DNA from: a phage
DNA: 64,000 nucleotides
NCBI GenBank assembly: GCA_028130375.1
Contig: GCA_028130375.1_3658.1
Strand: one strand, 5' to 3'
The translations under genes were made by a program, and so were the position numbers. Position 1 is the first letter of the stretch; the number at the start of each line of letters is the position of its first letter. The notes under the pieces were generated by a model. The model was not told where the DNA came from and did not search any database. It saw only the letters and a list, made by a program, of their open reading frames with translations. Shown here in pieces: positions 22,389 through 63,075 of the stretch.

Positions 22389-22417
22389 TTGACTTTACTC
22401 TAACTCCACAATATAGT
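22389..22417 (+). promoter_or_regulatory. sigma70-like promoter TTGACT-17-TATAGT in divergent intergenic region
   Basis: TTGACT 22389-22394, 17-bp spacer, TATAGT 22412-22417, about 40 bp before the 22458 start. Confidence 0.55.
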
Positions 22418-24686: not shown

Positions 24687-24956
24687 ATGTTATACCAGCA
24701 ATATGAACTTCGTGCAGAAAAAGAGTTAAATTTTGACAAAGATATTCACAGATATTATTATGGGAAAGTTAGAGGGCAAGCAAGAAAGTGTACTCCAACA
24801 CTCTTTTATGCCAGCAGACGACTAGCGCCAGAAGAGGCAACAGCAGAAAGGGTTGCGTACAACTGGAGAGTCACGTATGATATTGACAGATTCGATGTGA
24901 TATCTGTTTTGGAAAACTTTGAAAACACTTACACACAAGTAGAGGACTTTTACTAA
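24687..24956 (+). CDS. Hypothetical protein
   Basis: 89-aa ORF. Confidence 0.45.
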   Translation: MLYQQYELRAEKELNFDKDIHRYYYGKVRGQARKCTPTLFYASRRLAPEEATAERVAYNWRVTYDIDRFDVISVLENFENTYTQVEDFY

Positions 24957-26140
24957 TGTCAAGAAACGTATTCGAAAGTGGTCAAATCACTGTCCGTGAG
25001 TTGCCAGCTATTATTCAGTTTGCCCAACGTCATAGCCGATCTGTCCTAATTTTGGGACCAATGGGTGTGGGTAAAAGCCAGGTGATGAAGCAGATCGCTG
25101 ATAATATGTTCGGTGAGCGAGATGACAACCTTGTTGACGTGCGACTGTCAGATAAAGATCCTGCCGACTTATCTGGGCTACCTATCCCTGTAGAAGCGGA
25201 TGGAACTACACGTACAGTGTTTGCAATTCCAGAATTTTGGCCTGCGGATCCTGACTGGAGCGGAATTATCTTTCTGGATGAGCTCACTCATGCAGATAAC
25301 TACCTGCAAAAGGTTGCAATGCAAATTATGCTTGACCACAAGTGCGGCACCTATGCATTCCCTAAGGGTTCTGTTTTTGTGGCTGCGGGTAACCGTTCTA
25401 CAGATGGTGCGGTTCTTTCGGCGCTCGAAGCCCCTCTGGCTAACCGTTTTATCATTGTAGAGGTTACAAGCAATGCAGAGGTGTTTATTGAGGACTACGC
25501 ATTCCTCAACGGGGTTCACTCCTCTGTAATTGGGTATCTGAAAAGAGTTCCATCAGCTATTGATAATTATGAGGCTATGGCTGAGATTAATTGTCCATCT
25601 TTTGCCACACCACGATCTTGGGTTGCTGCATCTGACATCTTGCACGATTTTGACAGCGGTATTATTTCTGACGCTATGGCCCGTGTTCTTCTACAAGGTG
25701 CTATTGGTCACACTGCAGCGGTAGAGATCTGGACTTACCACACCAAGAAACGTAATTTACCGGAAATCGGTCGGATTATGGCAGGTGGCTGCAAAGAATA
25801 CGTAGGTCCTAAGCAGCCAGACATTTTGTGGATTCTTGGATCTGAAGGTTGTATCGCTATTCGCAATATGATGGAAAATGCAAGTATCTCAGACGAAGAT
25901 CTTGTCAGCTGCGTGGCAAACTTCCTCGATTTCCTTTGGGAAAACTTCAAGGACGAGAACCGAGATTTTGTATTCTCAGTCTTTATGGCGATGATGAAAC
26001 CTAATGCCTTAGGAAATGCCTTGCTTATCGGTAAAGGGCGTGACAAGATTGTTGCTCAGCTGATCAAAGCATACCCAAACCTGATGAAGATTGTAAAAGA
26101 GTTTGGTGAAGAGTTTAGCGCCATTTTGGCTAAAGCTTAA
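24956..26140 (+). CDS. AAA+ ATPase, MoxR/CobS-like
   Basis: 394 aa; Walker A GPMGVGKS, Walker B IIFLDELTHA, sensor-like AAGNRS. Confidence 0.8.
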   Translation: MSRNVFESGQITVRELPAIIQFAQRHSRSVLILGPMGVGKSQVMKQIADNMFGERDDNLVDVRLSDKDPADLSGLPIPVEADGTTRTVFAIPEFWPADPDWSGIIFLDELTHADNYLQKVAMQIMLDHKCGTYAFPKGSVFVAAGNRSTDGAVLSALEAPLANRFIIVEVTSNAEVFIEDYAFLNGVHSSVIGYLKRVPSAIDNYEAMAEINCPSFATPRSWVAASDILHDFDSGIISDAMARVLLQGAIGHTAAVEIWTYHTKKRNLPEIGRIMAGGCKEYVGPKQPDILWILGSEGCIAIRNMMENASISDEDLVSCVANFLDFLWENFKDENRDFVFSVFMAMMKPNALGNALLIGKGRDKIVAQLIKAYPNLMKIVKEFGEEFSAILAKA

Positions 26141-26150
26141 GGGGGGTTGT

Positions 26151-26531
26151 ATGGCTAAAGTAGGTAAGCGGGGAAACTACCTGGTGGTATTGACCGAGGA
26201 GCCGGAGAAGGAGTACGAATGCAGCTCCACTTGCGTGATCGATATCCGAGAAAAAGATGTAGATGAAGTCTGGTTTAAAATATTGGACGCTTGCGATAGC
26301 AGTGATTATTTCTTCATTTATGTCAACGATAAGGCTGGATTCTTCCATGACGACGGAGAGTTGCCGTATGAAATCTATGAACTTGTAGAGGCTTGCCATC
26401 GTGGAGATGCGGAGTTGTTTGGCCTACGGCTGAAAAGCGGTAAATTCTTCTATCAAGATGAGTGCATGAATCTTCATAACTTTGTAGAGGGAACTTGCAA
26501 CGATGGAGAGATTTTGGCACACTACGATTAA
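26151..26531 (+). CDS. Hypothetical protein
   Basis: ORF trimmed to ATG 26151 after RBS aagggggg; 126 aa. Confidence 0.45.
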   Translation: MAKVGKRGNYLVVLTEEPEKEYECSSTCVIDIREKDVDEVWFKILDACDSSDYFFIYVNDKAGFFHDDGELPYEIYELVEACHRGDAELFGLRLKSGKFFYQDECMNLHNFVEGTCNDGEILAHYD

Positions 26532-26543
26532 TTTCTAAGACCT

Positions 26544-26570
26544 CCCCCGCTTCGGCGGGGATTTTCTATT
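26544..26570 (+). terminator. Rho-independent terminator (ccccgc-ttcg-gcgggg + T-run)
   Basis: Same hairpin as at 114-129, followed by attttctattt. Confidence 0.65.
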
Positions 26571-26580
26571 TGGAGTCATT

Positions 26581-27081
26581 GTGAAAATTAAGATCTTTGC
26601 TATTATTTTGAGCGCACTTTTATCGCTGCCTGTTGTTGCAGCACCAAAACAAAAAGTATATCATACTTGCAAGCCATCAGATACTAAGGAAAACATTCTG
26701 GCATGCAATATCTACAGGGAAGCTAGAGGAGATGGCACGATGGGTATGCTGGCATCTGGGTTTGCCACACTAAACAGGAAATCCCACCCTAAATACCCAG
26801 ACACTATAAGAAAGATTGTCTACCAACCTAACCAGTTTTCGTGGACAAACCACGGCAAAACTTTTAAGGTGACAGAAAAAGATTCATGGGATCACGCTAA
26901 AAGTCTTGCAAAGATGCTTCTAAAGGTCTATAATAACAACCATGTTGCATACATGGCTATGGACATAACAGGTGGAGCAACACACTACCATACAACCAAA
27001 GTACGACCGAAATGGGCAAAAAAGATGCAGAGGACAGCTCAATTCGGGAGCCATATCTACTACAAGGAGCGCAATAAATGA
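26581..27081 (+). CDS. SleB-family cell-wall hydrolase with N-terminal signal peptide
   Basis: 166 aa; signal-like MKIKIFAIILSALLSLPVVAAP; NIYREARGDG...TLNRKSHPKYPDTIRKIVYQPNQFSW closely parallels the SleB catalytic core as I recall it. Confidence 0.8.
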   Translation: MKIKIFAIILSALLSLPVVAAPKQKVYHTCKPSDTKENILACNIYREARGDGTMGMLASGFATLNRKSHPKYPDTIRKIVYQPNQFSWTNHGKTFKVTEKDSWDHAKSLAKMLLKVYNNNHVAYMAMDITGGATHYHTTKVRPKWAKKMQRTAQFGSHIYYKERNK

Positions 27082-29060
27082 TTGTAAACAGTAATGAAAC
27101 TAAAGCAGTGCTGACCGGAAATATGGAGGTCACCAGGGGCTCAATTTCTCTGAACAAAGAGACTTTTGGGCTAATCATTAAAGGGATTTACGAAGATAAG
27201 GTGCTGGCAAGCTGCCGTGAACCAATCTTCAATGCTGTGGACTCCCATGTTGAGTCTGGACGGGGTGATGTACCGATCATCATTCACTCTCCTACAGACC
27301 TTGAACCATACTTCTTTGTGCAGGACGTTGGATTGGGCATGTCAGAAGAGATGGTCCGCAACACTTTCATGAATCTCGGGGAGTCAACCAAGCGCAACAG
27401 CAACGCTCTGGTAGGTAATAAAGGTGTAGGTTCAAAGGCCCCGTTCAGCATGGTGGACACTTTCGATGTGATTAGTGTGCACAACGGTGTTGAAAGCACA
27501 TATCTATTGTTCTTGGATCAGGGTATCCCAAACGTTACCAAGATCCGCGAGCGGAAGACTGAAGAGCACAACGGGGTAAAAGTTCAGTTCCATGTTAAGA
27601 AAGAGCATGTTCTGAAATATCGCACTGCTATTGCGTCATGCCTACGCTATGCAAAGTTTCCGTTTACCGTTACCGACCCTATGACCAGTAAGATGCTGGA
27701 AGGTGACAAGGTTGAGGCGCAGTATCGCTACGAGAAAGATGGTTGGAAAATGACTATCCTGAAAGGTTATACCAGTTCTGATGAGAGCCGTGTTGTGATG
27801 GGTCACCAACCTTACCGCTCTAAGTTCCTGGAGACATTGACCGATTACCCTGCAATCTGCGTGGAAATTCCTATTGGGGATTGCAATATTAACCCTGGGC
27901 GTGAATGGACCATAGAGGGCCATGACGACGGTGGATTCCAGGATCGCCTGGAGGCCTTTGTCAAAGAAGGTATACGTCTTCGCGGGGCAGAAGTTGTTGC
28001 AGAACTGGAGACGGCAAAAACCTCCGCAGAAGCACGTGAAATGATGAAGAATAGTGGGGTGTTCGGACACATCTTCGGCAAAAACTTTATGTGGAACCGT
28101 TGGGAAGAAACAGGACTTGGAGACTTAGGCGATTGTGAAATTTTCGCTGGCGGCTTAAATAAAGGCCGCATAGGCTATGCTCGTTATGGAAAGTCAGAGT
28201 TCTTACGGGGAGTCTATTTAGTATTTAACGACGGAGACGGCAAATATAACCGAAATAAGTGTAACTACTTAAGCGAGATCACCGGACGCAACGTTTTCTA
28301 TTGCCGTAACACGGATCTGGTGGAAGAGTTTAAAGAAGCGGCACACCACCCGTTCTTTGCAGATACGGTCAAATTGTTATCAGAGCTCCCTCGCCGACCT
28401 GTCAAGAAAGGTGAAACAAAAACTCGTTATGAGCCAGGCTATTGGGTTAAAAAACTTGAGAAGGATGGTTACTTCCGCCGTGAGCGTATTACTAAGGCAG
28501 AGTTCCGGAAGATTAAACACTGCATCCCTTATGAGGGTGATATCCAACGTGGAAGTTGTTGGCTGGGGCAGATGAGTAACATCTACCAGCAAGATTATGA
28601 CCGTGTACGTGCGGCACTTCAGATTCCTGAAGGTGAAGATCTGTATCTGGTATCTGAATCTCGTCTGCTTTGGACTGATCCTGATTGCCAGTATGTTACA
28701 GAGAAGAATGTGGAGCACCTGTTGAAAGAGGATGCTTGGAAATTCTTACTGACCCGTGCAGCAAATGAAACTTCTTATGACAGCCTGTATAGACAATTAG
28801 GGAAAATTATTCCCATGCAAGATTTTGGAAATTATCGGCCACATTTCCACAAGTGGGAAGGTAACACCACGTGGAAGCACAGTGAGCTAAATCATCGTGC
28901 CAAAATCTTAATCGCCAACCGAGTTAAATGCGGGAAGGCCTATATTGCAAGATTGGAAAAGAAATACCCACTTTTGAAGCATGTAGGCTTGAAATATTGG
29001 GACACCCCTGCTATGATTGAATACCGTGAGCTGATTGATACAAAGAATAACACCAAATAA
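27078..29060 (+). CDS. rIIA: rIIA-like protein (GHKL ATPase fold)
   Basis: 660 aa; N-box EPIFNAVDSH, G1 QDVGLGM, G2 GNKGVGSKAPF; immediately upstream of an rIIB homolog. Confidence 0.85.
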   Translation: MIVNSNETKAVLTGNMEVTRGSISLNKETFGLIIKGIYEDKVLASCREPIFNAVDSHVESGRGDVPIIIHSPTDLEPYFFVQDVGLGMSEEMVRNTFMNLGESTKRNSNALVGNKGVGSKAPFSMVDTFDVISVHNGVESTYLLFLDQGIPNVTKIRERKTEEHNGVKVQFHVKKEHVLKYRTAIASCLRYAKFPFTVTDPMTSKMLEGDKVEAQYRYEKDGWKMTILKGYTSSDESRVVMGHQPYRSKFLETLTDYPAICVEIPIGDCNINPGREWTIEGHDDGGFQDRLEAFVKEGIRLRGAEVVAELETAKTSAEAREMMKNSGVFGHIFGKNFMWNRWEETGLGDLGDCEIFAGGLNKGRIGYARYGKSEFLRGVYLVFNDGDGKYNRNKCNYLSEITGRNVFYCRNTDLVEEFKEAAHHPFFADTVKLLSELPRRPVKKGETKTRYEPGYWVKKLEKDGYFRRERITKAEFRKIKHCIPYEGDIQRGSCWLGQMSNIYQQDYDRVRAALQIPEGEDLYLVSESRLLWTDPDCQYVTEKNVEHLLKEDAWKFLLTRAANETSYDSLYRQLGKIIPMQDFGNYRPHFHKWEGNTTWKHSELNHRAKILIANRVKCGKAYIARLEKKYPLLKHVGLKYWDTPAMIEYRELIDTKNNTK

Positions 29061-29070
29061 GGAGACAGTT

Positions 29071-30276
29071 ATGATTTTCATCTACGAACACTTCAAAACT
29101 CGTAAAGAAGCACGCGACCGCCGTGCAGAACTTGAGAAGAAGGGTTTCACATGTGCCATTGAGAAAGGCGACACAACCTGGACACTGGCAGTTGGTGCCC
29201 CAGAGTTGTTCGATCCTGACCGTGACAGCGTCTGCTACACCCGTGAGGATTTTGAAACCCGCGAAGAGGCCCGTTTATTTCGATACGGTCTGGAAGATAA
29301 CGGTAAGTACGCTATGATCTTAGATTTAGGCGAAGGTTCCGTTAAACGTTGGGGCGTGGTATACCCACTGTGTGTTGTTCACGGTGTGGGGTTCACTGGG
29401 GTAGCAATCAAGTCAGAAGAACCTTTAGTAGAAGTCAAAGATCCGGTGCTGGAGGTGGTGAGCAGTGTGTCTCAGCAACAGACTCGAAGCATCGAGCCTT
29501 TGGTAGTTATTTGTGGGGAACTCCTCCAGATCACCTGCAACGAAGGCATTTTTGAAATTCGCCGCAGCGAAAGTGAGGAAGTTTACCAGAAAGTCTTCGA
29601 CCATATCTCTGTTCAGGAATATGATGAGGCAATTGGTGAAATCCTTGTCTGGCTGGAACGCAAGAATGAGTTCACCACACTTGCAGACAACCTGATCATG
29701 AAAGATGGTAAGCTCTACTACTACGGTGTAGAGATGCGATCCACCATTGCAAAGAAAATTGAGAAAGATTATGCAGATGGAACACTGGATGACCGCTATG
29801 TGAAATTCCTCGTTCGCCTGCTACGCAATCCTTCTGCAAAATCTGTAAACATGCTCTACGATTTTATGCAGGCCAACGATATCCAGATTGCAGAAGATGG
29901 TCGAATCATTTGCTACAAAGGGGTTCAGTTTAACGGCAGCAAGTGGGTGGATTGGCACAGTGGTAAAGTTCCACAATACCAGGGTGCTTTTGTATCCATG
30001 CCTCGTAACTTTGTAGAGGATGATCCGGAAGCTGCGTGCTCCTATGGCTTACACTGCGCCAGCAAAGAGTATGCAAAGAGCTACGGCACTGTAATGACTG
30101 TTATGGTTGATCCTGCAGATGTGGTTAGTGTGCCATACCAACACAATAGCGCTAAGTGCCGTGCATGCCGCTATGAGATTGTAGTAGCTCCGGAAGCACG
30201 CAAAGATGGAGACCCTATTGAATATGTAGTTGATCGTGACGGTAACACTATCGACATTCTTTACGAGGAGGCGTAA
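29071..30276 (+). CDS. rIIB: rIIB-like protein
   Basis: Start moved to ATG 29071 after RBS ggagaca; C-terminal region matches T4 rIIB as recalled from memory (shared NPS.KSV..L.DF, MPR, CS.GLH..SK.Y, DVVS.P, AK.R.C.YE). Confidence 0.85.
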   Translation: MIFIYEHFKTRKEARDRRAELEKKGFTCAIEKGDTTWTLAVGAPELFDPDRDSVCYTREDFETREEARLFRYGLEDNGKYAMILDLGEGSVKRWGVVYPLCVVHGVGFTGVAIKSEEPLVEVKDPVLEVVSSVSQQQTRSIEPLVVICGELLQITCNEGIFEIRRSESEEVYQKVFDHISVQEYDEAIGEILVWLERKNEFTTLADNLIMKDGKLYYYGVEMRSTIAKKIEKDYADGTLDDRYVKFLVRLLRNPSAKSVNMLYDFMQANDIQIAEDGRIICYKGVQFNGSKWVDWHSGKVPQYQGAFVSMPRNFVEDDPEAACSYGLHCASKEYAKSYGTVMTVMVDPADVVSVPYQHNSAKCRACRYEIVVAPEARKDGDPIEYVVDRDGNTIDILYEEA

Positions 30277-59637: not shown

Positions 59638-60298
59638 TTTTTAACTGAATTATCAAGGGGCTTAGGCCCCTTTCTTTTTGTCTGCTCTTCCCCCCTACCA
59701 TAAACGGCCCTACCTGGCAAGTGGAATAATTGACGAGCCATCAATCCCACACACTGTACAAATATACATGTAAAATAGCTATTGCATAACCTTTCATTGT
59801 GTGGTAGCGGTGCTATTTTTTACCCGTTTTCCTTCCAAAATTGCACGTAATGCAGTTATTGCACAAAATTTAACCTGATGCACATCTTCAATATCTTGTC
59901 AACAACTAAAAATCTTTATAAGTCATACACTTACACAAACCAAAGAGCGTGTTCTACGTGAAAAATCGAGTATAACTATAGCCGCCAGATCTCAGAATTT
60001 ACGTACGCTCGCCATTCTATAGCCTGCTAAGCATTTATTCCAACCATAGAATAACGGAATAGTCAATACCTGCATAAAATAATTATTCGTGTAAACTGCA
60101 TAACATAAATCAGCTTAGGTGTCAACATTTTTCGTAAACAGTCTGAAATTATCACGGTGAGTTATCATAAACAGAGAAATCTTTAGTCGTCTAATGTTTA
60201 CTGTACGTTACTATACTAACTGAAATCATTAGATGACTAATAGAAAGATAAGAAATAATTAACAATACAATTATTTTATCTGTAACAATAAGGCAACT

Positions 60299-60530
60299 AT
60301 GCAAACGAATGGCATGGCGCGACGGAGTCGCGACATAATATAAAAGCAGTAACCATCACCCCCGTGATAGTTTGTCTGCAAACTATTAATCAGATCATAG
60401 TTGCCTTGTATTTAGTTAATCATGACATAACAAGCAAGGCAACTATAGATCTTCTAATAGTTGCCCTGCTTTTATATTATGTCATAGATTATTAACTTGC
60501 TAATAGTTATCATGCAAACGAATGGCATGG
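60299..60530. repeat. Nested inverted/direct repeat block (GGCAACTAT arms; 20-bp direct repeat atgcaaacgaatggcatggc)
   Basis: ggcaactat at about 60292 and 60437 with reverse complement atagttgcc at about 60399 and 60458; exact 20-bp direct repeat at 60299-60318 and 60511-60530. Confidence 0.6.
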
Positions 60531-60533
60531 CTT

Positions 60534-60608
60534 ATCATTTCCATGTAAACTGTCAAGGTGTAAACTATCCAGGCGTAAACAGTCTATGCGGGAACAATCT
60601 ATACGTGA
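60534..60608. repeat. Iteron-like tandem array (5 copies, period about 15 bp, core GTAAAC-W-GTC)
   Basis: gtaaactgtcaagg / gtaaactatccagg / gtaaacagtctatg / gaacaatctatacg / gtgaacagtgaaac; further GTAAACAG copies near 60100, 60136, 60907, 61676. Confidence 0.6.
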
Positions 60609-61254
60609 ACAGTGAAACATGAAATAATAACAGTCGTTATTGTTCCATATTGTGTCATAGTATGTCACCATTATGTCTAAAGTGTCTAAGGTGTCAGACA
60701 AGTTTTTCTCCTCTTTGTCAAGTGCTGCATGAAAAATTTACAATCTTGTATGGTAGCATTTTTGCGGCCATGTTTACATTCAGCGATGTATGTATAAGCC
60801 TTGTTGTGTGGGCGTTTAGACGTCTAGACGGTTGGAAGTCCACAGGTCAATATCTAATCTATCGGCTGCTAACTATATCCCACACAAATAGTAATAAATA
60901 TAATTGTTATATGCGTAAACAGTAACTCATGTTATCAATCCCTGTATGTATCGCCAGTGGTGCGCATAATGGGTATTATGTTAAATTGCCCGTAATGATA
61001 ACAGTTCTCACAATGATAGGTATTCTCATTCATCCACACAAAATAGGTTGCAAATGTTGTGCCACTGTGTGAACGGCCTGGCCTATTAATTTCTCTCACT
61101 GCCTCGATATTTGAGAATTGTTATAAGAATGAGAAGTATTCCCATTCCGTCCGCCTGGCAGCGCTCCTGTAGGTCCTGCAAGGACTCTAGCTGAAAGCTA
61201 GACCCTTCGGGCCTCCCTGTAGGTCAGGTCAAAATCGTGGCAGAACTGAGCCTG

Positions 61255-61470
61255 TTCAGATATTTCTGGCTGACTCTTCAGGTCTGTGTGGGAAAAGCCA
61301 ACCTCTCCGGCGGGGCAGGGGGAGGTCAATTAAAAAATTTACGTGGTGTATGAAGCGCTCTTCAGGTAAGGCAGGTATTATGGGATGAAACCCTCTTCAG
61401 GCAATGATATTTGTGGGTGTGATATTTGCTGGAAAGCCAGATATGACGGGACTCCCGGCGGGGCAGGGGT
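61255..61470. repeat. GC-rich direct repeats (CTCTTCAGG several copies; cYccggcggggcagggg x2)
   Basis: ctcttcagg at about 61275, 61349, 61393 (again near 61805); ccggcggggcagggg at 61307-61321 and 61455-61469. Confidence 0.55.
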
Positions 61471-62165
61471 AGTACAGACAGGGAAAATATGAGAATGTAG
61501 TTGGGGAAATTGATCAGACAGGTAGAGTATGGAATATGTTACAAGTATGTTAAATATGGAGGTTGAATATCTGTAGGATTTGTGTGTAAAATCAAAGACT
61601 TAAGGGGTGTTGTGGTATTTTCTATAAATAATTCAAGTTTAATAGGCAATATTTGTCTCTATCCGCTTTGTGTGGTAAACAGATTCAGATTAGATTGGTT
61701 TACAAGTGTATACATAATATACAAATTAAAGATACAAGAAACCCCCCTCCCCCCTTCGGCTACCATTCACCTTTTCCTCTGACTGGTACTTAAACACTTA
61801 TTCAGACTCTTCAGGTTATCACCCATATATCATATGGCAGTGACTGGTGTCCTCCGGCCCCTCTTTCGTCACCCGTCCGCTTCGCCATGCTAATGCCATA
61901 GCTAATGGTTCGGTTGTTCACCCTGTTCACTCAGGTGTATCTCTATACCCCTTCAAACCGAAGAGAACAGAAAACCCGAATTACTCGGTAAAAGAAAAGA
62001 GAAGAACTTAATTTTATCAGGATAGGCAAGAATGTCAAGGCATGACTGCTCACTAAACAAGCAAACAGTCATGTGTGGGAGGTAAGTGATTGTGGTGGTA
62101 GGAAATTTAGTTGAAAGATGTGTTATAGGTGCTTCCAGCACTTTAGCCGGGCAGCTAATTGTGTG

Positions 62166-62381
62166 TCAGTCCAGCGGTTCATCCTCTACTTCACTGAAAT
62201 CAATGTTCATGGTCTCTTCCCAACCATCGATCTCAGCACAAGAGTGGAGTTCTTTAGGGTTTACTCCCAAAGCCTCAGCAACAGAGTCTATATTTAACAC
62301 CTCTGGCAGGTATGATTCATCGAATTCAAGGTAAATCAGGCCACGAGTGTTGTCAGCTCCACCAAATATCTCTATCTTCAT
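62166..62381 (-). CDS. Hypothetical acidic small protein
   Basis: 71-aa ORF on - strand. Confidence 0.4.
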   Translation of the reverse strand: MKIEIFGGADNTRGLIYLEFDESYLPEVLNIDSVAEALGVNPKELHSCAEIDGWEETMNIDFSEVEDEPLD

Positions 62382-62502
62382 AAAATCTCCTCTGGGAATG
62401 AAAGTGTGAACAGGGTTTTATACGTTCTAATGCACAGGAATTATACACGTTTGCCTCTTCAGGCCATGCTTTAGCATGAGGAACCTGTGTGGGCTCGGTG
62501 CT

Positions 62503-62715
62503 TCATAGTCTACCACCTCTGAACTCTTCGTGCTCAGGCATAATAGAGAACCAGATATCTACGATGTCCTCCCACGTCAGGTCATCAGCCTCAGGATCTG
62601 TCTGGGACGAAGATGAAGAGTCCTCAGAATCTAAGTTTTCCTCTTTAACTGGCTCATCCAAGGGACATATGGTCACTCCTTCGGATGTCTCTTCAGATGC
62701 ATGTGTGTTGATCAT
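62503..62715 (-). CDS. Hypothetical acidic small protein
   Basis: 70-aa ORF; an overlapping + strand ORF also exists so strand is uncertain; - strand chosen to match neighbours. Confidence 0.3.
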   Translation of the reverse strand: MINTHASEETSEGVTICPLDEPVKEENLDSEDSSSSSQTDPEADDLTWEDIVDIWFSIMPEHEEFRGGRL

Positions 62716-63075
62716 GTTCCACCCGTGAGTATTCCGGCAACAGCCGCTATGGAAGTAATGATCATCAGGATCACCACTAAAACTTCAGACAATGTTCTCA
62801 TTGTGTATTCCATATTCTCCAAACTGTGTGTGGATACTATCACGGGAGCGGTAATGTGTCAACAGAAACGCCGCGAGGGTTTGGTTAAAATCCGAGCGTA
62901 TGGTGATTTGGGTCAAAACGGACGTGCGTTCTCGCTACGCTCGAAAGAGAGATTTGTTTGTAGGAAGCTCTTAAACGCTCTGTAATGAGATTATCTGTCC
63001 AAGGTATGCAATCGTGCACCAGATAAAGAAAAGGACGCCACAGAGCGTCCTAGGTGTCTTAAATTTGATATTTTG

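Follow-up and report, generated by a model that had tools for sequence, protein, structure and literature searches.

A predicted Sec-exported SleB/CwlJ-family cell wall hydrolase encoded upstream of rIIA in a Vequintavirus, probably accessory to a separate endolysin

The DNA analysed here, called the window, is a stretch of 64,000 nucleotides from a phage (GenBank assembly GCA_028130375.1, contig GCA_028130375.1_3658.1). The product of the gene that overlaps the start of rIIA is probably a small murein hydrolase with a single domain of the SleB/CwlJ family, which is exported by the Sec pathway and acts as an accessory enzyme, with lysis depending on a separate endolysin and spanins. The features on which this reading is based are listed in Table 1.

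RESULTS

The hydrolase is gp2 of an rV5-like phage

The window belongs to the genome of a Vequintavirus (rV5-like) coliphage and the hydrolase is rV5 gp2. The 4.2-kb block from the ATPase gene to rIIA matched 122 phage records at 97-99% identity, almost exclusively from Vequintavirus, and the block of phage inoa at 99%. The hydrolase gene was identical to bas54_0065 of phage MaxBurger (Bas54) at 501 of 501 nucleotides, and the upstream hairpin and the ribosome-binding site of the hydrolase were also identical in MaxBurger. The gp2 protein of rV5 (166 amino acids, 19.05 kDa, pI 10.0) has the same length as the window hydrolase, and rV5 gp2, bas54_0065 and inoa_176 are the same gene with the same terminator and the same rIIA overlap. 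No difference of substance was found between the window and rV5, MaxBurger or inoa; the phage is another Vequintavirus isolate.

More than 100 relatives, inoa, MaxBurger and rV5 among them, already have the gene annotated under the name 'cell wall hydrolase' or 'SleB'. The family, the signal peptide, the position and the separateness from the endolysin are already found in public annotation or in papers, and the dispensability is found in a 2025 preprint. The hydrolase was present at an amino acid identity of at least 95% in 116 phage records, and the window and inoa copies differed in 8 synonymous and 2 non-synonymous codons. Intact retention in the 116 records and the few non-synonymous changes indicate that the hydrolase is useful in nature, though it is dispensable on K-12 under laboratory conditions.

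Table 1. Coordinates of the hydrolase gene, its parts and its surroundings in the window
Feature	Position	Strand	Basis and remarks
Sigma-70 consensus promoter TTGACT-17-TATAGT	22389..22417	+	Promoter scan, 10/12; predicted head of transcription unit
MoxR-type AAA ATPase gene	24956..26140	+	PHROG 1297, E=2e-110; two genes upstream of hydrolase
126-aa ORF (gp3-like)	26151..26531		Between MoxR ATPase and hydrolase
Intrinsic terminator-like hairpin, CCCCGCTTCGGCGGGG then ATTTTCTATTT	26545..26571	+	Terminator scan; directly upstream of hydrolase
Shine-Dalgarno GGAG	26572..26575	+	5 nt before hydrolase GTG; identical in MaxBurger and inoa
CDS of SleB/CwlJ-family murein hydrolase, predicted exported	26581..27081	+	166 aa, GTG start; ORF list and sequence
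Codons of predicted signal peptide (residues 1-20 or 1-21)	26581..26643	+	MKIK / IFAIILSALLSL / PVVAA; n/h/c anatomy
Predicted mature catalytic domain, ~145 aa	26644..27078	+	Hydrolase_2 match at residues 51-161; SleB catalytic-domain fold (model)
Glu47 codon GAA, presumed catalytic	26719..26721	+	Aligns with E of SleB GESRGE
ATGA overlap of hydrolase stop TGA and rIIA start ATG	27078..27081	+	Same junction in MaxBurger and inoa
rIIA	27078..29060	+	HATPase_c_3 N-terminus
rIIB	~29071..30276	+	Next to rIIA

The protein has the catalytic domain and fold of SleB

The hydrolase ORF matched the Pfam profile PF07486 (Hydrolase_2, 'Cell Wall Hydrolase') with an E value of 2.1e-19 and 70.4 bits, the cut-off being 27 bits, and the match covered positions 2-100 of the 100 profile positions. 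It also matched PHROG 938 (E=1.6e-27). When the protein was compared to the PDB with phmmer, the SleB catalytic domains 4f55 (E=2e-6) and 4fet (E=2e-5) were the only matches. In the phmmer alignment, E47 in the sequence REARGD of the hydrolase was paired with the Glu of GESRGE in SleB, which we take to be the catalytic residue of SleB, and E47 was nearly invariant in an alignment of 11 sequences. [quoted passage not shown]

An AlphaFold2 model of the hydrolase with the 11-sequence alignment as input had a pLDDT of 88.7, with values of 53-55 at residues 1-20 and above 90 over most of the domain; this model was used in preference to a single-sequence model (pLDDT 47.9), which was set aside. In a Foldseek search of the PDB, the significant matches of the model were again SleB 4f55 and 4fet only, with TM scores of 0.72-0.79 (normalised to the target) and an rmsd of 2.7 A. 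The family assignment is secure because the Pfam, PHROG, PDB sequence and fold matches all give SleB/Hydrolase_2, and the SleB-like catalytic core that had been recognised in an earlier note on this DNA, made from the letters alone, was thus recovered at a level far beyond chance.

No second Pfam domain was found in the hydrolase by the profile search, and only approximately 25 residues separate the signal peptide from the catalytic helix. The architecture is therefore that of a CwlJ-like single domain, and the N-terminal peptidoglycan-binding domain of SleB is absent. The mature protein has a calculated pI of 9.95 and two cysteines, C30 and C42. An exhaustive search of representatives returned 11,355 cluster representatives of PF07486 at E<=1e-3, and family-wide statistics were taken from this search; a word-indexed homologue search gave 10 proteins.

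The N-terminus is predicted to be a cleavable Sec signal peptide

From its anatomy and from its homologues, the N-terminus of the hydrolase is predicted to be a Sec-type signal peptide for signal peptidase I. The leader is composed of a basic n-region (MKIK), an h-region (IFAIILSALLSL) and a c-region (PVVAA). The h-region is a 12-residue core in which 8 residues are I, L or F, and the mean Kyte-Doolittle hydrophobicity was 2.69 in the best 15-residue window of the leader. The helix-breaking Pro17 precedes the short c-region, and the -3/-1 rule is satisfied at two sites, after A20 and after A21. Proline at +1 disfavours signal peptidase I, and this concerns the A21 site, which is followed by Pro22. 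Inspection of the leader showed no twin arginine. The protein is not a lipoprotein since residues 1-29 contain no Cys, and the hydrophobicity of the IFAIILSALLSL core exceeds that expected of a SAR domain; the weakly hydrophobic, Gly/Ala/Ser-rich transmembrane domain of SAR endolysins, which has no cleavage site, was not found in the hydrolase.

Compared to a relative with 81% identity (P0002), the leader of the hydrolase was identical at 12 of 21 residues and the mature part at 123 of 145, and this faster divergence of the leader is the usual pattern of signal peptides. An N-terminal hydrophobic segment was present in 135 of the 150 best family representatives, and 13 of these 135 had a lipobox-like motif. 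Signal-peptide-like N-termini were also seen, from sequence anatomy, in T5.083, PVP-SE1 gp243 and Schickermooser gp228. Paired cysteines were conserved across the family in two alternative patterns, and such pairs would fit an oxidising, disulfide-forming periplasmic location. Taken with the low pLDDT of residues 1-20, these features agree with the cleavable Sec signal peptide proposed in the earlier note.

The N-terminal hydrophobic segment of PaoP5_032, from a Pseudomonas phage of the genus Pakpunavirus (L006 3324-3884), has no basic n-region; the protein has an acidic start (METLE...) with basic residues after the helix, and the segment looks anchored and not cleaved. The topology of PaoP5_032 may differ from that of the homologues with cleaved signals, being anchored or even N-out.

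The gene lies in a conserved block between a MoxR ATPase gene and rIIA

The placement of the hydrolase between an ATPase gene and rIIA, as first described, was confirmed: a MoxR-type ATPase gene and the 126-aa ORF precede it, and rIIA and rIIB follow. The position had been considered unusual. This view did not hold, since the order of ATPase, hydrolase and rIIA is fixed across the genus, the whole block being present in 112 of the 122 matching phage records, and homologues are also found among non-structural genes. The homologues of T5, PaoP5 and phAPEC8-like phages have non-structural surroundings and lie apart from the lysis cassettes.

The terminator-like hairpin upstream of the hydrolase has 6 G-C pairs and a loop of 4, lies approximately 10 nt before the start codon and is conserved in MaxBurger and inoa. 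Its sequence is that of the rV5 terminator t003, with a deltaG of -16.0 kcal/mol (rV5 Table S4), and the sigma-70 consensus promoter in Table 1 is the rV5 promoter P010. Four transcription units have been proposed for rV5, and gene 2 belongs to the predicted unit 10-1-238-164, which is headed by P010. No late-promoter motif near gene 2 is listed in the rV5 promoter data. A literature search found no Vequintavirus transcriptome, and early/middle timing is suggested from predicted promoters only.

A promoter of the hydrolase's own was considered and rejected, the only sigma-70-like matches near its start being one that overlaps the CDS (26579-26606) and one inside it (26906-26934). The number of promoter-like matches in the region was 20 compared to 16.9 +/- 4.0 in shuffled sequences, and was not enriched. 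The match inside the hydrolase, TTGCAA-17-TATAAT (10/12, plus strand), is located 150 nt ahead of the rIIA start codon, where it might act as an internal promoter for rIIA; it may be due to chance, given that there was no enrichment over the shuffles.

Genes on both sides of the hydrolase have been connected with host defence. According to the HIDEN-SEQ preprint, the orthologue of the MoxR ATPase gene, bas54_0063, is an anti-defence gene that the phage requires to overcome DS-28, a predicted system of E. coli CFE311; the mean insertion count of bas54_0063 drops from 148.7 to 0.0. Knock-down of rIIA/B in the Vequintavirus EdH4 sensitised the phage to lambda RexAB (CRISPRi-ART paper), and rIIA and rIIB were both non-essential in Bas54 (transposon data).

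A conserved partner gene, or a two-gene module with for example an immunity protein, was also considered for the hydrolase and was rejected: the genes adjacent to the homologues on either side in T5, PVP-SE1, Certrevirus, PaoP5 and Schickermooser had no detectable similarity to each other or to the gp3-like ORF. These adjacent genes are likewise non-structural and lie apart from the lysis cassettes. The linkage of the hydrolase with the rII and MoxR genes is therefore genus-specific.

The hydrolase is distinct from the endolysin and dispensable on K-12

The lambda-R-like endolysin of the genus is the product of a different gene (rV5 gp89, which is inoa_43), and this enzyme has been purified as LysECP26 and found to be lytic. 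In Vequintavirus, an i-/o-spanin pair adjoins the terminase gene (inoa, LL12 annotation). When the lysin, the spanins and the lysin-adjacent membrane protein of the genus were compared to the window with tblastn, only chance matches were obtained. The canonical lysis genes are thus outside the window, which accounts for the observation in the earlier note that no holin or spanin was apparent nearby. Holin and spanin genes elsewhere in the genome, which the note proposed to look for, are represented in the genus by the spanins beside the terminase gene and by named holin candidates, all of them outside the window.

In the HIDEN-SEQ transposon study of Bas54, bas54_0065 was disrupted at 32 of 36 TA sites with a mean count of 916 and was classified as 'Non-essential', and the endolysin gene bas54_0202 (24 TA sites) and the spanin genes bas54_0001 and bas54_0002 had mean counts of 0.0 with no insertions. 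These findings show that the hydrolase is neither required nor a substitute for the endolysin. From the nucleotide-identical bas54_0065, the hydrolase is dispensable for plaque formation on K-12, and it is not the main lysis enzyme. The gene lies in a predicted sigma-70 unit behind t003 rather than in a late one, and no lysin, holin or spanin homologue accompanies it in the window.

T5 has an endolysin of its own which is distinct from T5.083. T5.083 was scored as 'Not Fit' in a CRISPRi-ART screen of T5, an assay with a known false-negative rate. A second transposon preprint does not mention the Hydrolase_2 family. Phapecoctavirus encodes a lysozyme-type enzyme in addition to its Hydrolase_2 protein, and the endolysin that has been characterised in PVP-SE1 is another protein, PVP-SE1gp146.

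Two holin candidates of Bas54, bas54_0115 (the rV5 gp129-like 'putative holin') and bas54_0201 (a small membrane protein encoded beside the endolysin), were both non-essential. The inoa counterpart of bas54_0201 is inoa_44 (L002 36815-37021), which is outside the window. It follows that the Vequintavirus holin is redundant or still to be named, and this leaves room for some contribution of the hydrolase to lysis.

Alternative roles of the hydrolase

The earlier note had suggested that the protein could be a Sec-exported endolysin or a virion-associated lysin. The former could take the form of a true or fully redundant second endolysin which, like Lys44, is secreted through Sec and builds up in the periplasm until the loss of membrane potential caused by a holin or pinholin sets off lysis. 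A muralytic family with a signal peptide would suit this role, as would the label 'endolysin' that is attached to PHROG 938 and to some records, the 65-aa protein of Certrevirus that has two transmembrane domains, overlaps the 3' end of the homologue and is the proposed holin, and the fact that neither Bas54 holin candidate is essential. It is nevertheless very unlikely, and as the enzyme that lyses the cell the hydrolase can be set aside, given that the identical gene is non-essential in the presence of a lambda-R-like endolysin that took no insertions at its 24 TA sites. No holin or spanin adjoins the hydrolase in the window, the predicted sigma-70 unit and the preceding terminator also speak against an endolysin, PVP-SE1 (gp146) and T5 have separate endolysins, and T5.083 was 'Not fit'. 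It is likewise improbable that the N-terminus stays uncleaved and that the protein is a signal-anchor or SAR-type hydrolase, held inactive at the inner membrane and freed on depolarisation. The proline at +1 of the best AXA-like site (A21/P22) could hinder signal peptidase, and PaoP5_032 has a hydrophobic helix without a basic n-region or an obvious cleavage site. In contrast, the h-region of the window protein is strongly hydrophobic and not rich in Gly, Ala and Ser, an alternative -3/-1 site is present after A20, Pro17 and the short c-region are typical of cleaved signals, and T5.083 has a clear SQA/S site.

A virion-associated lysin that aids penetration of the wall by the tail at infection is unlikely in the extreme, even though a second muralytic enzyme for entry is common among phages. 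Six peptide substrings of gp2 were absent from the rV5 virion mass spectrometry table, which has 19 proteins at modest depth. The gene is located outside the structural module, between the MoxR gene and rIIA, and candidates for a lysozyme and a hydrolase associated with the baseplate are already known in the genus. A Sec-exported protein, as the hydrolase is predicted to be, leaves the cytoplasm and would have no contact with the capsids that are assembled there. A different view is that the hydrolase serves chiefly to condition the envelope early in conflicts between phages or between phage and host, for example by changing the peptidoglycan so that superinfecting phages are kept out, or by blunting an envelope-linked defence. 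The flanking genes have counter-defence roles (the MoxR gene bas54_0063 against DS-28, rIIA/B against RexAB), the hydrolase would be translationally coupled to rIIA, and it is conserved in spite of being non-essential. Other early periplasmic phage proteins, namely Sp and Imm of T4 and Llp of T5, have a role in exclusion. This view is read from genomic context, and the neighbours of the homologues in other phage groups are unrelated, so that the link with rII and MoxR is confined to the genus. Moreover, the one clinical-isolate comparison covered here gave no conditional requirement for bas54_0065 (log2FC -0.88, adjusted p 1.0). Conflict as the main job is judged improbable.

DISCUSSION

Proposed mode of action

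The reading that we prefer is that of an accessory, Sec-exported hydrolase. The gene would be transcribed with the predicted sigma-70-driven rII/replication unit through read-through of t003. Such read-through would keep the level of the hydrolase low, and low expression would explain why cells are not lysed early. Translation would be coupled to that of rIIA through the ATGA overlap. The protein would be exported to the periplasm by Sec independently of any holin, its signal peptide providing holin-independent access to the wall, and it would be cleaved by signal peptidase I, probably after Ala20, with Pro22 disfavouring the Ala21 site. The product would be a basic periplasmic enzyme of approximately 16.9 kDa with a pI of approximately 10, probably containing a C30-C42 disulfide. 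By analogy with SleB, it would cut the glycan strands of the sacculus in a Glu47-dependent manner, and its bond specificity is most likely that of a lytic transglycosylase. The substrate of SleB is the spore cortex, which contains muramic-delta-lactam, and this is absent from E. coli. Because SleB needs muramic-delta-lactam, the activity and specificity of the phage enzyme are not guaranteed. The contribution of the hydrolase would be accessory and quantitative, consisting of weakening, conditioning or remodelling of the wall, or of an aid to lysis under some conditions.

A broader proposal, which we put forward tentatively and at a rather low likelihood, is that the exported SleB-like hydrolases of rV5-, T5-, PVP-SE1-, phAPEC8- and PAK_P1-like phages might form a functional class of their own, that of holin-independent, periplasmic, pre-lysis wall remodellers. 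Rather than ordinary lysis, their role might be envelope conditioning for conflict, such as superinfection exclusion or escape from an envelope-linked defence, or the lysis of non-growing cells, and in Vequintavirus the hydrolase would be coupled in translation to the 'membrane integrity protector' rIIA/B.

Comparison with known systems

SleB (PDB 4F55, 4FET), a germination-specific lytic transglycosylase of Bacillus, has the same Pfam family, the same fold and the same Glu in GE[SA]RG as the window hydrolase, and like the hydrolase it carries a signal peptide, the name of the 4fet chain being 'prepeptide'. The window hydrolase differs from SleB in the missing peptidoglycan-binding domain, and the identity is only 21-24%. 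CwlJ, a cortex-lytic enzyme of Bacillus, is a single catalytic domain homologous to the C-terminal domain of SleB with the catalytic Glu in place, and its bond specificity has never been demonstrated (PMC12331253). The architecture of CwlJ is that of the mature window hydrolase; unlike the latter, CwlJ resides in the spore coat of Gram-positive bacteria.

Closer relatives are found in phages. T5.083, PVP-SE1 gp243, phAPEC8-like gp228, CB7_83/CR3_087 and PaoP5_032 are homologues that are 35-58% identical over the catalytic domain. Their phages are large, virulent and infect Gram-negative bacteria. Each of the five carries a hydrophobic leader at its N-terminus and is encoded apart from the known endolysin. 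A literature search gave nothing usable on experimental work with phage Hydrolase_2 proteins, nor for 'T5.083' in the main texts of papers. The Certrevirus homologue (CB7_83) was reported to have a predicted signal peptide and to be toxic on expression in E. coli, with data not shown (PMC7344957). The Certrevirus homologue that was retrieved for comparison was 49% identical to the window hydrolase. Unlike the window, Certrevirus has an overlapping holin candidate with two transmembrane domains and no rII genes.

Holin-independent export by Sec is a property of Lys44 of the Oenococcus phage fOg44 and of SAR endolysins such as P1 Lyz and phage 21 R. Lys44, P1 Lyz and 21 R are essential lysis enzymes, whereas the window hydrolase is dispensable and occurs together with a canonical endolysin that is essential. 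Unlike SAR domains, its leader combines strong hydrophobicity with a cleavage motif.

Implications for annotation

PHROG 938 and several RefSeq records name phage Hydrolase_2 proteins 'endolysin'. Genome-wide screens for essentiality in Bas54 and in T5, an unrelated phage, show that such a protein is not the lysis enzyme, and mining of 'endolysins' for enzybiotics or inference of lysis cassettes from the PHROG 938 label would be misled. The conserved Hydrolase_2 family with signal peptides was represented by 1,240 phage records, and a defined phenotype would add modestly to the understanding of how large virulent phages deal with the Gram-negative envelope.

T5.083 (RefSeq NC_005859) and several Vequintavirus genes carry the label 'endolysin' through PHROG 938, though they are dispensable and distinct from the true endolysins. 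In rV5 Table S3 (PMC3606486), the T5.083 homologue is given on the gp3 row, apparently because a row has slipped, and should stand with gp2.

A putative non-coding region elsewhere in the window

Approximately 3.4 kb of the window, at ~59640-63075, contains only short ORFs of less than 100 amino acids. This region corresponds to a CDS-free gap of inoa (69753-72271) and is plausibly the 'non-coding' box of rV5. It is plausibly also the intergenic region of approximately 2 kb in Bas54 in which no transposon insertions were tolerated. The absence of insertions in the Bas54 region suggests that it holds a non-coding element which is essential and might be an origin or a regulatory region. The repeats seen within ~59640-63075 were two weak 15-bp tandem repeats only, at 60544-60613.
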